IMG/VR virus record: IMGVR_UViG_3300020227_000052 | Location: 1-11,338 of that record | Reading direction: 5' to 3' (one strand) | Origin: a virus | DNA: 11,338 nucleotides | Shown here: one piece after another, positions 1,435 to 11,338 of the stretch | How positions within the stretch are numbered: position 1 is the stretch's first letter | Layout: every line of letters starts with the position of its first letter | Position numbers and translations under genes: made by a program | The notes under the pieces: model-generated | Databases searched by the model: none | What the model was told of the DNA's origin: nothing | What the model saw: the letters and a program-made list of their open reading frames with translations, nothing else

Positions 1435-3564
1435 ATGACTTATGACCTAACATCATTGAAAAGACAAAAAGCCTACAAAAAAGACGGTATAGAATACATT
1501 AATATTGAATGTGCTTTTGATATAGAAACAACAAACACCAAGACAGATACACAAGAGCCGATAGCTTTCATGTACGCTTGGTGTCTAGGATTGAGAAATG
1601 AAAATTTCATGTATTACGGTAGAACGTGGGAAGAATTTTTAGAACTTTGCCGAGACCTAAAAGAACACTTCCAACTAAACGAAGAAAGACGTTTAGTCTG
1701 TTACGTTCATAACCTAGCTTTCGAATTTCAGTTTATGCGTAAATATTTTAATTGGACACACATATTTGCACCTGAAAAACGACAGCCATTAGTAGCACTT
1801 AATGACTTCGGTATAGAGTTTAGGGACTCTTACCGATTATCAGGCAGTGATTTAAACACTGTAGCCAATAACTTAGCCTTTCATGATATTGAGAAGTTAA
1901 AAGGGGACTTGGATTATACCCTTACAAGACATCACAACACAGAACTAACAGCTAAAGAATGGGGCTACATTAAACATGATGTTTTAATATTGTTGTATTA
2001 CATTAATGAGCAATTTGCATACTACAATTATAACATAACTAGGGTACCTTTTACTAATACTGGACGTGTAAGAAAATACGTTAGGGATATGTGTTACAAG
2101 GTACAACCTGATGACTTAAATATATTCGGTAAACCTATTAGAAGCTATAACAAATACAACAGCTATAAACGAATTATGAACGTATTACAATTAACAGCTG
2201 AATCATATCAACAATGCAGAAATGCTTTCATGGGCGGATATGTACATGCTAGTGCTAGAAAGCTAGGGCAGACATTAGAGAATGTAACCTCAATTGATAT
2301 TACCTCTTCATATCCTGCCGTAATGGTTAGTGAAAAATTCCCTATGAGTAAACCGTTTAAAGTTGATGTGTCCGACCCTGATTTTAATTTTAGGGATTAC
2401 TTTAACAATACTAACTTAAATCTAGTATTTACAATCAAACTAATAAACCCAATGAACAAATTAGAATACGATTATGAAAGCTATATTTCAGAAAGCAACT
2501 GTGAATATATCTCTAATCCGATAACACACAATGGACGTGTATTCAGTGCTGATGAATTGATTCTAACTATCACTGATGTTGATTTTGATGTAATAGAAAA
2601 AACTTACGAATGGGACGAAATACAGTTTGCTAACATGTATTACTTTTACAATGACTACCTACCTAAACCAATCATAAAATCAATTATGAAGCTATATGAA
2701 GACAAAACACAGCTAAAAGGTATAAAAGGTAAGGAATTAGAATATTATCTAAATAAGAGCATGCTAAACGCAGTGTATGGCATGACAGTCACTGACATAG
2801 TAAAAGATGATGTAGTTTATGATGAAAACTTAGACGATTGGGAACTAGAAGAAGCTAACATAAATGAAAAAATAAACAGATATAATCACGATAAGAACCG
2901 ATTTCTATACTATCCATGGGGGCTTTTTGTATCGGCATACGCAAGAAGGAACCTATGGGACGGAATCGTGAACATTGGAAATGATTATGTTTATTCTGAT
3001 ACTGATTCTATTAAGTTAGAGAATATAGAAAATCATTATGACTTTATCTATTACTACAATAATATGATAACTGAAAAAGTTCAGGCTATGTGTGAACACT
3101 ATAACTTAGACTATCAAAGACTAGCACCCGAAAATATCAATGGGGAAATTAAACCTATAGGCATTTGGGAAGTTGACGGAACTTATTCTAAATTTAAAAC
3201 ACTAGGGGCTAAACGTTATCTAGTAGAACATAAAGACAGTAAAGAATTAGAAATAACACTTTCAGGTTTAAACAAAAAAGACGGTGTGAAATATCTAAAA
3301 CAAGAGTTTGGAACTAACGAAAATGTATTTGAGAACTTTGATAATTATTTATATGTTCCTGATGAGTATTCAGGTAAGCTAGTTCATTACTATATCGAAA
3401 AAGAACAGTTAGCTAACATTACAGATTATCAAGGCAACACAGTAGCAGTAAAAGCACCCTCAGGGCTTCATTTAGAGCCTACACATTTTACTTTAAGTTT
3501 GCCATTAATAGCTAAAGAAATAATAGATAATGCAGAAAAAGGCTATATTATAACGTCATTATAA
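1435..3564 (+). CDS. Protein-primed family-B DNA polymerase (709 aa)
   Basis: SD AAGGAGTGG, ATG at 1435, TAA stop. All motifs are visible: Exo I FDIETT (D29, E31); Exo II HNLAFEF (N93, F96, E97); Exo III YIKHD (Y178, D182); motif A DITSSYP (D288); motif B KSMLNAVYG (K441); motif C YSDTDS (aa 520-525, nt 2992-3009); KxY LGAKRY (K593, Y595). The long A-to-B and B-to-C spacers match the TPR1/TPR2 insertions of protein-primed enzymes. Confidence 0.97.
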   Translation: MTYDLTSLKRQKAYKKDGIEYINIECAFDIETTNTKTDTQEPIAFMYAWCLGLRNENFMYYGRTWEEFLELCRDLKEHFQLNEERRLVCYVHNLAFEFQFMRKYFNWTHIFAPEKRQPLVALNDFGIEFRDSYRLSGSDLNTVANNLAFHDIEKLKGDLDYTLTRHHNTELTAKEWGYIKHDVLILLYYINEQFAYYNYNITRVPFTNTGRVRKYVRDMCYKVQPDDLNIFGKPIRSYNKYNSYKRIMNVLQLTAESYQQCRNAFMGGYVHASARKLGQTLENVTSIDITSSYPAVMVSEKFPMSKPFKVDVSDPDFNFRDYFNNTNLNLVFTIKLINPMNKLEYDYESYISESNCEYISNPITHNGRVFSADELILTITDVDFDVIEKTYEWDEIQFANMYYFYNDYLPKPIIKSIMKLYEDKTQLKGIKGKELEYYLNKSMLNAVYGMTVTDIVKDDVVYDENLDDWELEEANINEKINRYNHDKNRFLYYPWGLFVSAYARRNLWDGIVNIGNDYVYSDTDSIKLENIENHYDFIYYYNNMITEKVQAMCEHYNLDYQRLAPENINGEIKPIGIWEVDGTYSKFKTLGAKRYLVEHKDSKELEITLSGLNKKDGVKYLKQEFGTNENVFENFDNYLYVPDEYSGKLVHYYIEKEQLANITDYQGNTVAVKAPSGLHLEPTHFTLSLPLIAKEIIDNAEKGYIITSL

Positions 3565-3576
3565 AGCCACTGATTT

Positions 3577-3594
3577 GTTTTGCTATATTATATA
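3577..3594 (+). promoter_or_regulatory. Extended -10 promoter of the packaging/portal module (GTTTTGCTATATTATATA)
   Basis: TG at 3581-3582 and -10 TATATT at 3584-3589, with no recognisable -35. The 18-mer is identical to 6952-6969. It lies in the 58-bp gap between the polymerase stop and the ATPase start. Confidence 0.55.
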
Positions 3595-4734: not shown

Positions 4735-5925
4735 ATGACAAACCAATACGATTGGGGAATTTATAACGGTATTCATGGCATACCTTTCGACAGAACAGAA
4801 AAAGACCGAAACACACGTAACCAAGTCATGTATATGTTAGACCGTAGCTTATTGATGTTTAAATATCATAATCTACCCGAGACACTACCACCAATTGAAC
4901 TTGAAAGACTATTACAAACAAATGGTTTTGCAGGTGTAACCGAAGTGAATGGGGAACTTTACGCTTTCTATGGTGGACTAGGTGGAGAACAGGACGTTTA
5001 CGGAAGACCAACAACAATGGTTATTTCTAATCCAGCTTTAAACTATAACGAAACACTAACAATTGATAGAGACGTAGTTTTAATGCGTAACGATAGTATG
5101 ATGTTAGGTTTAATACCTACATTTGCTAAATACAGTTCAATCATGAATGAGAATGAATTGTCTATGACTTTAGCAAGCATTTCACAACGTGTGAATAATT
5201 TAATTAGTGTTGCTGATGACAACACAGCAGATTCTGCTAAAAAGTATTTGAAACAATTAGAAGAAGGTAAACTAGGTTACATTTTTGAATCTAAGTTATT
5301 TGATTCACTACAAACTAATCCTATGAACAGTTCAGGAGGTTCTAGCATTACTGAACTGATTGAGTTACAGCAATATCTAAAAGCTAGTATGTACAATGAG
5401 ATAGGTTTAAATGCTAACTACAACATGAAACGTGAAAGACTTAACTCTGCTGAAGTCGAAATGAATTCAGACAACCTATATCCGTTAGTAGATAACATGC
5501 TAGAACATAGAAGAATGGCATTAGAACAGATTAATGAAAAATATGGAACTGATATATCTGTAGAGTTTAACTCTAGTTGGGACTATAGAATTAATCAAGG
5601 GGAAAGCATAGACAGTGAGTATTTGGAACAAGCAGATGAACAGAGCCAAGAAGACTTGGGATTCTCTGAACTGGAAGCTAATTCAGATACATTTGAAGAT
5701 GATGAATCAATCGGACAGGAAGAAGAAGCAGAACCAACTGAAACAGTTGAAGAAGCAAGTCAAGAAACTCAAACAGAGCCATTAGATGAACCATTGATAG
5801 AACATAAAGAAGAGTTAGTAGAAGATACTGAACAAAGTGATGAAGAGTTACATTCTAGTTTAGACTTTGAAGAAATTATAGAAGGCTTAGCAAATTTAAA
5901 TAAAGAAAAAGTAAAGGAGCAATAA
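4735..5925 (+). CDS. Portal / upper collar connector, phi29 gp10-like, with an acidic C-terminal extension of about 110 aa (396 aa)
   Basis: SD AAGGGGAG, ATG at 4735, TAA stop. The segments FKYHNLPETLPPIELERLLQTNGFAGV, GGEQDVYGRPT, NEIGLNANYNMKRERLNSAEVEMNSD and EQINEKYGTDISVEF parallel conserved blocks of the phi29 connector as I recall it (WENLPPTINPSFLEK, GQRDVY, LGIKNANLEKKERMVTDEV, KINELYGLNVKVKF). From about aa 288 the sequence is acidic low complexity. Confidence 0.88.
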   Translation: MTNQYDWGIYNGIHGIPFDRTEKDRNTRNQVMYMLDRSLLMFKYHNLPETLPPIELERLLQTNGFAGVTEVNGELYAFYGGLGGEQDVYGRPTTMVISNPALNYNETLTIDRDVVLMRNDSMMLGLIPTFAKYSSIMNENELSMTLASISQRVNNLISVADDNTADSAKKYLKQLEEGKLGYIFESKLFDSLQTNPMNSSGGSSITELIELQQYLKASMYNEIGLNANYNMKRERLNSAEVEMNSDNLYPLVDNMLEHRRMALEQINEKYGTDISVEFNSSWDYRINQGESIDSEYLEQADEQSQEDLGFSELEANSDTFEDDESIGQEEEAEPTETVEEASQETQTEPLDEPLIEHKEELVEDTEQSDEELHSSLDFEEIIEGLANLNKEKVKEQ

Positions 5926-6922: not shown

Positions 6923-6951
6923 ATATAATAACAATATAAAATTATTAAAAA

Positions 6952-6969
6952 GTTTTGCTATATTATATA
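6952..6969 (+). promoter_or_regulatory. Extended -10 promoter of the capsid gene (GTTTTGCTATATTATATA)
   Basis: TG at 6956-6957 and -10 TATATT at 6959-6964, with an A/T-rich upstream region and no -35. The 18-mer is identical to 3577-3594. It lies in the 87-bp gap before the capsid gene. Confidence 0.6.
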
Positions 6970-8218: not shown

Positions 8219-8254
8219 AAAGGGTAGGGGACTTAAAGCCCTTACCCTTTTTTT
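8219..8254 (+). terminator. Rho-independent terminator after the capsid gene
   Basis: The stem AAAGGGTA-GGG (8219-8229) pairs with CCC-T-TACCCTTT (8239-8250), giving 12 bp with one bulged T and a 9-nt loop. It is followed by a T-run through 8254 (7 consecutive T from 8248). Confidence 0.85.
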
Positions 8255-8708: not shown

Positions 8709-10703
8709 ATGGGAATATATTGGGCTTTAAAGTTTATTAACGAAGATGACACAGCTACCTTTACGAAAACGACCCATTATATAGAAGAAGGAACAATAGT
8801 TACCGTAACTGCTAATGATGGTTATGTGTTAGATACAATTAAATTAGAAACACCATTCTATACAGAAACAGTACCAAGTTCAGTTGTACAAGGTAAGCAA
8901 GAAGTTGAATTCAATCCAAGAAAATATATCAGAGATACAGCTACAACTAAAAACCTCACAATGACCGTGACTACTTCAGAAGTAGAAGTAGGGCAAGTAG
9001 TAACCTATACGTATGATTTAGATGATGGATTATATTCAAAATTTGATAAAGATGTAGTAGAGAAAACAGATGTTATTGAAATAGGTGCTAAGGATTATTA
9101 CAGGTTTAAAGGTAATATAGAGGTTACATTGAACGATAAAACAAGTAACTACAACCTTGAAGATAACGAACTGTATTTTAGAGATGAAGGTAAAACCTTT
9201 GCTTTACGAATGGAAACTAAGTGGCGTGATGACCTAGAAAGTGTTCATATTAAAGCACGTTCAGAATCATTCGTAGAATATGCTATTCAGTTATCTAATG
9301 CAGTAACTAATTATTATCTGCCAGAGGTACAAGGTAATGAAGAGATTATAGTATCTGCAAAAGAGAACTATGATTTCAGAAATGGTGTGACAGTTGTTTA
9401 TACACGTAACGGTATTAACGAACGAATCAATTACACACCTAAAAACAACCCCGAATATTTCAGTGAAGACAGCATAGACTTTTATTTAAATATAGCTGAT
9501 GTATGGACTGATGACCTACAAAAAATTGAGGTTATAGCTAATGCTGAAGAGATACCACCACCAAAAGAAGCCTCTATAAGACTTGGACTAGAAAATGCTA
9601 CATCTAACATCACAGGTAAGCATATTAAAGAGAATGAAGATTTAGTGCTTACAGCTGATGAAGGCTTTGAGTTTGGTGATTTAATCAAGATAACCATAAC
9701 AAGACAATTAAACGTAGGTACGACACAAACATATCTCCCTAACTCTGCCAGTGATTCCAAGTATTTCAATGATGATAATACAGTATTCACGCTGAATATG
9801 AGTGAGATTTGGGATTATGATACGTATATCATTTTAGTTGAGGCAAGTGCCAAAGAATCATACAAAGGTGATGACGATGAAGACATCACAGACAGTTCTA
9901 CGGACTTTGCTAACATCTATTACGCTGATAGTGGTATCTTATCAAATATAGCCTCTGAACGTTTCTCTAAGGCACAGACAGATGGTTTAGAAGGACAGGG
10001 AGATTTACCGATAGATATGGGAAGTTATATATATCAAGTCTATAAATTCCCTCTGAAGTTCACAGATGATTTAATCAGTGAATCAGAAAGTAAAATAAGA
10101 ATGGGATTCTATCCATTAGAGAGTACAAGTCGTTACATGTTGAGAAGTCGAGTTAAATTCGATTTAGGTACGATTACAGTACCCGAAACATACCACAACA
10201 TTTACGACTATAGAGACACACAGTGCCTATTGCATGTACCGTATGCAGAGCCTATAGAGATTGAACCAACGTACGTTATAGGGCAAATGATAGACCTAGC
10301 CTATTTCTTAGACCTTTACAACGGTAAAGTAACGTTAGAAGTGTATTCCGATAAAATAGAAGGTGGATTAGTTCAACGTGAAGAAGTACCCGTTGTATTC
10401 GATATACCGTTCATGCAACCAGAGTACAATAGCGTAGTGAATAAGGTCGGGGGCTATATCAATAACAAGGTTAAAACACCTTACATTGAAGTAGTTAGAA
10501 ACATTCCATATGACCCTAGCACTATATTTGGTAAAGAAGGCAAAGAGTATGACAAGCTAAAAGAGTTTGAAGGTTATGTAGAAGTAGCAGACCTAGACTT
10601 ATCTACCAATGCAAAACGTGAAGAACAAGAACAAATAGAATCATTATTAAGTCAAGGCGTAATCATTAATAAACCACAAGAAAAAACTATAATTACTGAA
10701 TAA
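8709..10703 (+). CDS. Tail knob / receptor-binding tail protein: four tandem ~95-aa repeat domains plus a gp9-like C-terminal region (664 aa)
   Basis: SD AGGAGGA at 8696-8702 lies 6 nt before ATG 8709. TAA stop. It is in the same frame as 8256-8705, separated only by TAA-CAG. Residues ~5-383 form four repeats. The C-terminal end EGYVEVADLDLSTNAKREEQEQIESLLSQGVII resembles the gp9 C-terminal pattern as I recall it ([33 protein letters not shown]). Confidence 0.65.
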   Translation: MGIYWALKFINEDDTATFTKTTHYIEEGTIVTVTANDGYVLDTIKLETPFYTETVPSSVVQGKQEVEFNPRKYIRDTATTKNLTMTVTTSEVEVGQVVTYTYDLDDGLYSKFDKDVVEKTDVIEIGAKDYYRFKGNIEVTLNDKTSNYNLEDNELYFRDEGKTFALRMETKWRDDLESVHIKARSESFVEYAIQLSNAVTNYYLPEVQGNEEIIVSAKENYDFRNGVTVVYTRNGINERINYTPKNNPEYFSEDSIDFYLNIADVWTDDLQKIEVIANAEEIPPPKEASIRLGLENATSNITGKHIKENEDLVLTADEGFEFGDLIKITITRQLNVGTTQTYLPNSASDSKYFNDDNTVFTLNMSEIWDYDTYIILVEASAKESYKGDDDEDITDSSTDFANIYYADSGILSNIASERFSKAQTDGLEGQGDLPIDMGSYIYQVYKFPLKFTDDLISESESKIRMGFYPLESTSRYMLRSRVKFDLGTITVPETYHNIYDYRDTQCLLHVPYAEPIEIEPTYVIGQMIDLAYFLDLYNGKVTLEVYSDKIEGGLVQREEVPVVFDIPFMQPEYNSVVNKVGGYINNKVKTPYIEVVRNIPYDPSTIFGKEGKEYDKLKEFEGYVEVADLDLSTNAKREEQEQIESLLSQGVIINKPQEKTIITE

Positions 10704-10715
10704 CTTAATTTGATT

Positions 10716-10743
10716 TTGTAAAACTGTATAAATATGTTATATT
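10716..10743 (+). promoter_or_regulatory. Orphan sigma-A-type promoter downstream of the last gene (TTGTAA - 16 nt - TGtTATATT)
   Basis: -35 TTGTAA at 10716-10721, a 16-nt spacer with TG at 10735-10736, and -10 TATATT at 10738-10743. It shares TATATTATATA with the 3584 and 6959 promoters. No ORF follows. Confidence 0.55.
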
Positions 10744-10749
10744 ATATAT

Positions 10750-10835
10750 AGGTCAAGAAGTTATTCACTTCTTTTATGTTTTAAAATTTTATTTTTCATT
10801 TCCTAAGACTAGGTACCGCCACCTAGTCTTTTTTT
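10750..10835 (+). ncRNA. Candidate small non-coding RNA of about 85 nt (promoter-to-terminator unit without an ORF)
   Basis: The predicted start is near 10750. Hairpin 1 is AAGAAGT/ACTTCTT (10755-10761 pairs with 10767-10773, 5-nt loop). A U/A-rich linker contains the self-complementary TTTTAAAATTTT (10779-10790). Hairpin 2 is the terminator at 10805-10835. The longest ORF inside is 2 codons. Confidence 0.35.
10805..10835 (+). terminator. Rho-independent terminator at the end of the late region
   Basis: A perfect 10-bp stem AAGACTAGGT (10805-10814) pairs with ACCTAGTCTT (10821-10830) around the 6-nt loop ACCGCC. The T-run at 10829-10835 has 7 T. Confidence 0.88.
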
Positions 10836-10948
10836 ATATCTTCCATCACAACCCCACTCATCCTTTTAATATAAGCAAAGAAAAGAATTTAGGTATTAAC
10901 TATCCTATTTACTATTTAATCCTACAGAATAACTCACAGTTGCTTCTC

Positions 10949-11338
10949 TATACCCCTTAAAAAAAGATTTTACCTACATTCATTCCAATTTCATTCCACT
11001 TTAATTTTCCAATTGTCAACACTCTAATTACTCTATAAATTCCACTACAATTACTGCATATTTATTTACATTTTATTAATTTTATTGTATAGTTAGTGTA
11101 GGGCAGTTTATTGTTTATATTTTTATAACTATTCTCATTTTCTATTTTATCTGCCAATTACTTTTCATTTTACATTTCCATTTTCATATTACATTTATTT
11201 ATTTTAATTAATTTTATTATATATTTTCTTTCTATATTATTTTCATTCTATTTTATATTTTCCACAACTTTTATTATTATTTTATTTAATTTTATATTTA
11301 TATTATTGGGGAACTGGGTAATTTATTTTCTAGTGTGT
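10949..11338. repeat. Right inverted terminal repeat (ITR-R), 390 bp
   Basis: Exact reverse complement of 1-390, ending ...CTAGTGTGT-3'. Confidence 0.97.

Follow-up and report, generated by a model that had tools for sequence, protein, structure and literature searches.

A candidate small-RNA gene at the right end of a ten-gene phi29-like phage genome, with predicted antisense pairing to the DNA polymerase translation start

The stretch of DNA analysed here in full (the window; 11,338 nt) is a complete linear phi29-like genome of 11,338 bp with perfect inverted terminal repeats of 390 bp (repeat I1: 390 nt, 100% complementary). It carries ten genes, every one on the + strand, and encodes, besides a protein-primed DNA polymerase, a gp16-type ATPase, a gp10-type portal and a phi29-type capsid protein. 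Scans with Pfam and PHROG gave no match for six of the ten proteins. The following features of the genome are referred to below; the product of orf2 is assumed to be the terminal protein.

502-759, + strand: gene for a small protein with a helix-turn-helix-like sequence, judged by eye; no Pfam or PHROG match
770-1408, + strand: orf2; no Pfam or PHROG match
1435-3564, + strand: polB, protein-primed family-B DNA polymerase
stop codon at 10703, + strand: end of the gene for the tail protein (664 aa)
10949-11338, no strand assigned: right inverted terminal repeat, a perfect copy of 1-390

A whole-genome megablast search against INPHARED gave no match, and deposited phages include nothing close to it. 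Metagenomes from gut, rumen and digesters contain a large family of such phages, whose genomes measure roughly 10-13.5 kb; SRR9276342, SRR28523168 and SRR34340272 are examples of samples in which the present phage occurs. A scan of genome contigs returned distant relatives only, binned in many unrelated taxa, and therefore no host assignment. Through the tail protein and the polymerase we recovered near-complete genomes of four further lineages: L005, L006 and L008 (tail identity 92-93%), L007, L142 and L143 (tail identity 68%), L019 and L103 (tail identity 48%, polymerase identity 55%) and L099 (polymerase identity 70%). The window genome has no recognisable endolysin or holin; many relatives have an amidase or lysozyme gene 3' of the tail gene.

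Downstream of 10703 the + strand has no ORF of 20 aa or more. The right-end unit found there consists of these elements:

10716-10743, + strand: small-RNA promoter identified by promoter scan; -35 TTGTAA at 10716-10721, TG at 10735-10736, -10 TATATT at 10738-10743
10750-10836, + strand: predicted non-coding RNA of about 86 nt, called from its fold, its lack of an ORF and an architecture kept in relatives
10750-10755, + strand: 5' end AGGUCA, the proposed seed; unpaired in the minimum-free-energy structure and invariant in the RNA alignment A3 (an alignment unreliable through indels and register shifts)
10755-10761/10767-10773, + strand: 5' hairpin of 7 bp with a 5-nt loop, taken from the minimum-free-energy structure; -5.1 kcal/mol, z -2.2
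10779-10790, + strand: AU palindromic stretch UUUUAAAAUUUU
10805-10837, + strand: intrinsic terminator with a 10-bp stem (10805-10830), a 6-nt loop and U7; -13.5 kcal/mol, z -5.6

The start of the RNA (10750 +/-1) was placed by its spacing from the -10 element and the 3' end was placed in the U tract. The original prediction had described a promoter composed of TTGTAA, a 16-nt spacer and TGtTATATT (10735-10743), a 7-bp hairpin at 10755-10773 and the absence of any reading frame, and all of this was recovered: the hairpin is the minimum-free-energy structure, and the unit's single ATG (10777) opens a frame of just one further codon before a stop. About 55 nt, free of ORFs, separate promoter and terminator. 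The predicted RNA (87 nt as folded) has an energy of -18.6 kcal/mol vs -8.2 kcal/mol for shuffled sequences (z -4.55; 0 of 200 shuffles as low), and both the minimum-free-energy and the centroid structure consist of two independent hairpins with an unpaired linker of 31 nt between them. The right-end RNA is the sole U-rich stretch on the transcribed strand. Its terminator also serves the late (tail) mRNA that reads through the unit. Permissive Rfam scans of the window and six relatives returned matches at chance level only and assigned the RNA to no family.

Two further candidates in this region were rejected. The micro-ORF AUG-UUU-UAA that begins at the ATG lacks a Shine-Dalgarno sequence, and L007 does not conserve it; a structure with the end of the tail gene, based on a 10-bp complement (10697-10706/10758-10767, repeat I25), is not conserved in L005. 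A unique pyrimidine-rich segment of 113 nt (10836-10948) separates the terminator from the right terminal repeat and is partly conserved in L005, L008, L007, L142 and L143 (e.g. CTTCCATCACA...CTCAGCCT); the inner edge of the terminal repeat, ACCCCTTAAAAAAAGATTTTCA, is likewise conserved.

The extended -10 element of the small-RNA promoter belongs to a recurrent motif. The exact sequence TGyTATATTATATA (TGNTATATTATATA) occurs three times in the window (at 3581, 6956 and 10735), in all cases on the + strand and between genes, against an expectation of zero from 200 shuffles; a generic sigma-70 scan showed no enrichment in this AT-rich genome (47 sites found vs 58.9 expected). The other promoters concerned are:

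404-431, + strand: early promoter P1 of orf1-orf2-polB, TTGTGA-16-TGTTATAAT; of the same type as the small-RNA promoter and conserved in relatives
3581-3594, + strand: -10 of the promoter before the ATPase operon, TGCTATATTATATA
6956-6969, + strand: -10 of the promoter before the capsid gene, TGCTATATTATATA

The small-RNA promoter and P1 have the pattern TTTTGTRA-N11-TATGTTATAWT in common, and because of this match the small-RNA promoter looks like one that the host polymerase would recognise without help. A 15-bp palindrome, TATAATGACATTATA (with variants), is present at 426-440, 3549-3563 and 6924-6938. It overlaps the -10 of P1 and lies ~20 nt upstream of the -10 in the ATPase-operon and capsid promoters, neither of which has a -35; it is conserved in L007, L142, L143, L019 and L103 and is absent from the small-RNA promoter. 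By analogy with phi29 p4, this arrangement suggests an early-off/late-on switch, perhaps worked by the helix-turn-helix-like protein encoded at 502-759.

The original prediction also held the right-end terminator to be the strongest of the genome. The terminator is present (10805-10835), but that rank goes to a terminator located directly after the capsid gene, inside the late operon (8222-8254; 8222-8247 plus T7, -17.8 kcal/mol). The position of this post-capsid terminator is conserved across much of the family, and it probably acts as an attenuator that fixes how much capsid is expressed relative to tail.

In all four further lineages the tail gene is followed by a promoter with the same -10, and this in turn by a short stretch without ORFs and a terminator; the RNA architecture is the same in L005, L006, L008, L007, L142, L143, L019 and L103. 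The best-conserved segment extends from the -10 to position +6 (ATATGTTATATTATATATAGGTCA): L005 and L007 have it unchanged and L019 differs at one position, in a comparison that includes lineages with tail-protein identities of 48-68%, and the sequences flanking it diverge. The body of the RNA is AU-rich and diverges fast across lineages. Terminator stems of unrelated sequence do the same job in L007, L019 and L103, and conservation of the 5' hairpin in L019 is not convincing. The self-complementary AU stretch, for which a possible role in RNA-RNA pairing had been suggested, does exist, but it is uninformative, since each lineage has an AU palindrome of a different sequence at this place, within an AU-rich spacer.

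A terminator 104-222 nt after the stop codon, with a promoter between the two, is unique to this clade. In ~35 other complete family members terminators are located 2-45 nt after an ORF, and what comes after the tail gene is lysis genes or leftward genes. None of these ~35 complete relatives from outside the subclade, in a wider family that keeps the gp16 ATPase and the gp10 portal, has the unit, and neither do L144 and L145, the complete outgroups nearest to the clade (capsid identity 72-74%; ATPase and portal kept); in L145 the terminal repeat begins at the stop codon of the tail gene. Searching for the -10 pattern plus AGGTCA added no family members, and an exact-pattern scan of IMG/VR with promoter and start site found unrelated contigs only. 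The contigs of the distant tail-protein homologues (P0009-P0011) stop directly after the gene and carry no right-end information.

Taken with the absence of coding potential, the conservation pattern makes it quite likely that the right-end unit is a genuine small-RNA gene. The notion that the short transcript is itself the product is probably correct: promoter and first six transcribed bases are kept while the rest of the RNA diverges.

Two details of the comparison concern individual lineages. The window and L005 are near-identical from the -10 on and wholly different just upstream of it (10704-10734 vs 10342-10383), and L008 agrees with the window in this upstream part (from the tail stop codon to the -35 region); this suggests a recombination breakpoint at the small-RNA promoter. 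In L099 the right-end unit (10476-10675) has a late-type -10 (TGCTATATTATATA) and no -35. Its RNA has a self-paired 5' end (AGGUAAAC...GUUUACCU), and a weak first terminator is followed by a strong one ~200 nt downstream, so that L099 may make either two RNAs or a single long one.

The only invariant part of the RNA, AGGUCA, has a counterpart at the start of polB. The predicted target on the early mRNA comprises:

1373-1448, + strand: 3' end of orf2, intergenic spacer and translation start of polB
1421-1426, + strand: AAGGAG
1435-1437, + strand: AUG of polB
1443-1448, + strand: UGACCU

In every lineage in which the RNA begins with AGGUCA, UGACCU is found within the first 30 nt of polB. The hexamer TGACCT is rare (2-4 copies per genome on the + strand). 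One copy is located at polB +9 in the window, L005, L007, L142 and L143 and at polB +23, in non-homologous codons, in L019 and L103. It is absent from the start of polB in L099, whose RNA begins with AGGUAA, and in 0 of 35 outgroups was it seen at this position. L099 has instead a sequence immediately 5' of its strong terminator, GUUAAGUCAUGAG, which is the complement of positions +5..+17 of its own polB, CUUAUGACUUAAC. Compared with AGGUCA:UGACCU both partners have changed, to AAGUCA with UGACUU: a G to A change in the RNA is paired with a C to U change in the mRNA that is synonymous (CUA to UUA, both Leu). Seed and target thus co-vary across lineages, the number of lineages being four only. 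This match is the strongest evidence for a putative antisense action on polB. The original prediction had named an antisense or regulatory RNA as a fallback; the evidence favours that reading.

When the RNA was screened against the translation start regions of the phage's own genes, polB stood out. The predicted colinear duplex joins nt 1-69 of the RNA with polB -62..+14, AAGGAG and AUG included; in the window it has 54 pairs and an energy of -45.2 kcal/mol, and colinear duplexes over the Shine-Dalgarno sequence and AUG are predicted in the window, L005, L007, L019 and L103 (-41 to -49 kcal/mol). Such extended pairing requires that the 5' hairpin (10755-10773) be opened, and the long duplex depends on G.U pairs and internal loops. 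We also computed a structure-aware ddG in which the terminator hairpin was allowed to persist. By this measure the polB start is the best site of the genome in the window (-23.0; background -7.0, sd 3.4), L019 (-21.1) and L103 (-20.0) and the second best in L007. The score of the polB site was equalled by none of 200 body-shuffled RNAs in the window, L019 and L103, and by 6-10 of 200 in the L007 group; after normalisation for composition the site ranked 1 in the window, 1 in L007 and 2 in L019. Reciprocally, in six of eight genomes (window, L005, L007, L019, L103 and L099; z -3.6 to -5.7) the polB start (-45..+20) has its best + strand partner in the right-end non-coding region; in L142 and L143 the unit comes only about third.

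Several controls temper these figures. In a look-elsewhere control 3 of 40 shuffled RNA bodies did at least as well in ddG at some site of the genome, and the energy statistics alone are for this reason only suggestive. The polB start was the best site for 2 of the 40 shuffles and is thus somewhat sticky for a U-rich RNA; being U-rich, the RNA is prone to pair with any ribosome-binding region rich in purines. When the reverse complement of the RNA was compared with the target, strict Watson-Crick similarity was not significant (9/300, 154/300 and 26/300 shuffles equal). Cross-lineage pairs were often nearly as good as cognate ones, and in the L007 group the cognate pair was no better than the cross-lineage pairs. 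For the first 80 nt of the L099 RNA the structure-aware ddG put polB at rank 29, not as a target. An origin of the RNA gene by inverted duplication of the polB start region was considered and dropped, the DNA-level homology between the two not being significant. A second site, inside polB (1580-1604), is 76% complementary to 10793-10817, i.e. to the 3' linker of the RNA and an arm of its terminator (repeat I22), and was among the top sites in the duplex scans of the window.

We propose, with about even confidence, that the RNA is a trans-acting imperfect antisense RNA against the orf2-polB junction, seeded at its 5' end, that represses translation of the polymerase. An ~86-nt non-coding RNA would start at ~10750 from an early-type extended -10 promoter and end at the terminator it has in common with the late operon. 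Its free 5' AGGUCA would nucleate on UGACCU in polB codons 3-5; pairing would then spread through the 5' hairpin and the U-rich linker, over AUG, AAGGAG and the end of orf2 (1373-1448), and ribosome loading on polB would be blocked. The duplex might also be a target for a double-strand-specific RNase. As the late read-through mRNAs carry the sequence of the RNA in their 3' UTR, late transcription could strengthen the repression. Since orf2 and polB are co-transcribed, the RNA could set the ratio of their products or shut off synthesis of the polymerase. The anatomy of the unit, its conservation, its lack of coding potential and the complementarity with seed co-variation are read directly from the genomes; that the RNA is produced, that it starts where we place it and that it represses rather than activates, we infer.

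The RNA may be real and yet act mainly on something other than polB: on an mRNA of the host, on another mRNA of the phage, or, for instance as a decoy or anti-defence RNA, on a host factor for defence or RNA binding. The polB complementarity would then be a by-product of composition. We regard this as unlikely. In its favour, the unit is conserved and non-coding, the fast evolution of the RNA body is what arms-race or host-specific functions would give, the energy statistics for polB are not decisive after look-elsewhere correction, and there are further predicted sites, such as that at 1580-1604. It leaves unexplained, however, why AGGUCA and UGACCU co-occur at independent positions of the polB start, and why the two partners have changed together in L099.

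It is also unlikely that there is no RNA function at all, the terminator ending the late operon and shielding the terminal repeat and the replication origin, and the promoter being a DNA-level element that binds or titrates RNA polymerase or a regulator, or the remnant of a lost cassette. A late-operon terminator is needed at this place anyway, the RNA body is poorly conserved, and a lost cassette is conceivable since relatives have amidase, lysis, early or leftward genes after the tail gene. A remnant, however, would not keep 24 of 24 promoter positions and bases +1..+6 while the flanks diverge, nor a functional terminator at a distance of 55-70 nt in four lineages, and the clade-unique placement of the terminator, with a promoter before it, also speaks against an arrangement without an RNA product.

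The phi29 pRNA gene is located between the last gene of an operon and the genome end and is transcribed outward from its own sigma-A-type promoter to a terminator. The right-end unit has the same topology (own promoter, position at the genome end at 10716-10835 with the repeat from 10949, outward transcription, terminator), the phage encodes the gp16-type ATPase, gp10-type portal and phi29-type capsid protein of such a motor, and fast divergence of pRNA sequences is known. The original prediction accordingly raised a pRNA-like packaging RNA, i.e. a miniature pRNA at the portal vertex that would bridge the prohead to the ATPase during packaging as the phi29 pRNA does. We consider this very improbable. 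There is no match to RF00044 in the window at E <= 10 or in L005, L007, L019, L004, L030 and L037 at E <= 5. The RNA, of 86 nt vs 120-174 nt for pRNA, is about half the size or less, and it forms two separate hairpins, with neither a helix A joining the 5' and 3' ends nor a three-way junction; the functional features of pRNA are helix A (with its CCA bulge), the three-way junction and the interlocking CE/D loops (PMC5066667), all of which the present RNA lacks. Its loops, UAUUC and ACCGCC, are not mutually complementary and offer no 4-nt complement, and inspection of the L007 and L019 structures showed no complementary loop pair; a UAUU/AAUA match found in L008 only was judged to be chance. 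Nor is the 5' hairpin convincingly conserved in L019, and the N-terminus of the portal has no basic RKR-type patch. The wider family, L144 and L145 included, retains ATPase and portal and does not have the unit, which is limited to a subclade and does not track the motor proteins, contrary to what a packaging role would lead one to expect. In the literature pRNA is treated as a feature of phi29 and related Bacillus phages, with position 147-320 (PMC11476376). That the 86-nt RNA is a drastically reduced, structurally unrelated pRNA analogue serving the packaging motor is equally hard to credit; if true, packaging RNAs would for the first time extend beyond the Bacillus phi29 group. The RNA might conceivably combine two roles, as motor component and as a sensor that shuts down polymerase synthesis.

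The proposed antisense control of polB has parallels among known systems. Phage antisense RNAs that regulate a phage gene by pairing include lambda OOP, P22 sar and P1/P7 c4. Like the present unit, these are promoter-to-terminator units of ~70-80 nt, and c4 likewise works in trans, using short complementary blocks to pair with a ribosome-binding region; OOP and sar differ in being cis-antisense, and c4 in being cut from a longer transcript and in controlling an antirepressor in temperate phages. We know of no phage antisense RNA in phi29-like phages, and of none that targets a polymerase. Type I 3'UTR-derived small RNAs, such as DapZ and MicL, have their own promoter, and small RNAs with a 5'-end seed act in the 'five-codon window'. 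The present unit resembles the former in that its promoter follows the upstream gene closely and its terminator is common with the mRNA of that gene (tail stop codon 10703, promoter 10716-10743, a single terminator 10805-10835), and the latter in that the extreme 5' end is most conserved and is predicted to pair inside target codons 3-5; both kinds, in contrast, are encoded on the chromosome and for the most part depend on Hfq, in Gram-negative bacteria.

Plasmids provide the classic cases of antisense control over replication proteins, an example being pMV158 RNAII, which acts on repB (PMC4485353). With pMV158 RNAII and R1 CopA the phage RNA shares a single-stranded 5' tail or antisense domain, a terminator hairpin and a U tail, and its predicted target is the ribosome-binding region of a replication enzyme; the 5' tail of ~13 nt in L099, which directly abuts the terminator hairpin, is particularly RNAII-like. 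CopA and RNAII are read from the DNA strand opposite to that of their target and hence match it throughout, whereas the phage RNA is encoded 9.3 kb from its predicted target, with both gene (10750-10836) and target (1373-1448) on the + strand, and the pairing would be imperfect and rich in G.U. The replicon here is a linear protein-primed phage, and the target would be the DNA polymerase, not an initiator. Our literature search found no trans-encoded antisense RNA aimed at the polymerase of a protein-primed phi29-like phage.

If the proposed control of polB is correct, a 10-gene phage, with one of the smallest known tailed-phage genomes, would throttle its own DNA polymerase by an RNA to which it devotes ~1% of its unique sequence. 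Plasmid-style antisense control of replication would then operate in a protein-primed linear phage, encoded in trans at the other genome end, and would provide a simple circuit for the ratio of polymerase to terminal protein or for early-gene shut-off. The phi29-like phages, for which pRNA is the only RNA noted in the literature we found, would also gain a regulatory RNA. A tempting false lead, that of a pRNA outside Bacillus phages, is removed.

Some further observations concern the proteins and the family. In the gp10-type portal the match to the Pfam connector domain is confined to residues 20-279, and residues ~290-396 (window 5602-5922) form an extremely Asp- and Glu-rich C-terminal extension of ~100 residues. 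Terminal repeats are much longer in the outgroups L144 and L145 (639 and 576 bp), and in L144 the replication module is on the opposite strand, which indicates that the genome architecture of the family is fluid. A further palindrome, TGTTCCACGTGGAACA / TGTTTCACGTGAAACA, recurs in intergenic regions and terminator-like hairpins of more distant family members (L001, L002, L039, L047, L064, L072 and L088), where it may be a different operator or regulatory site.
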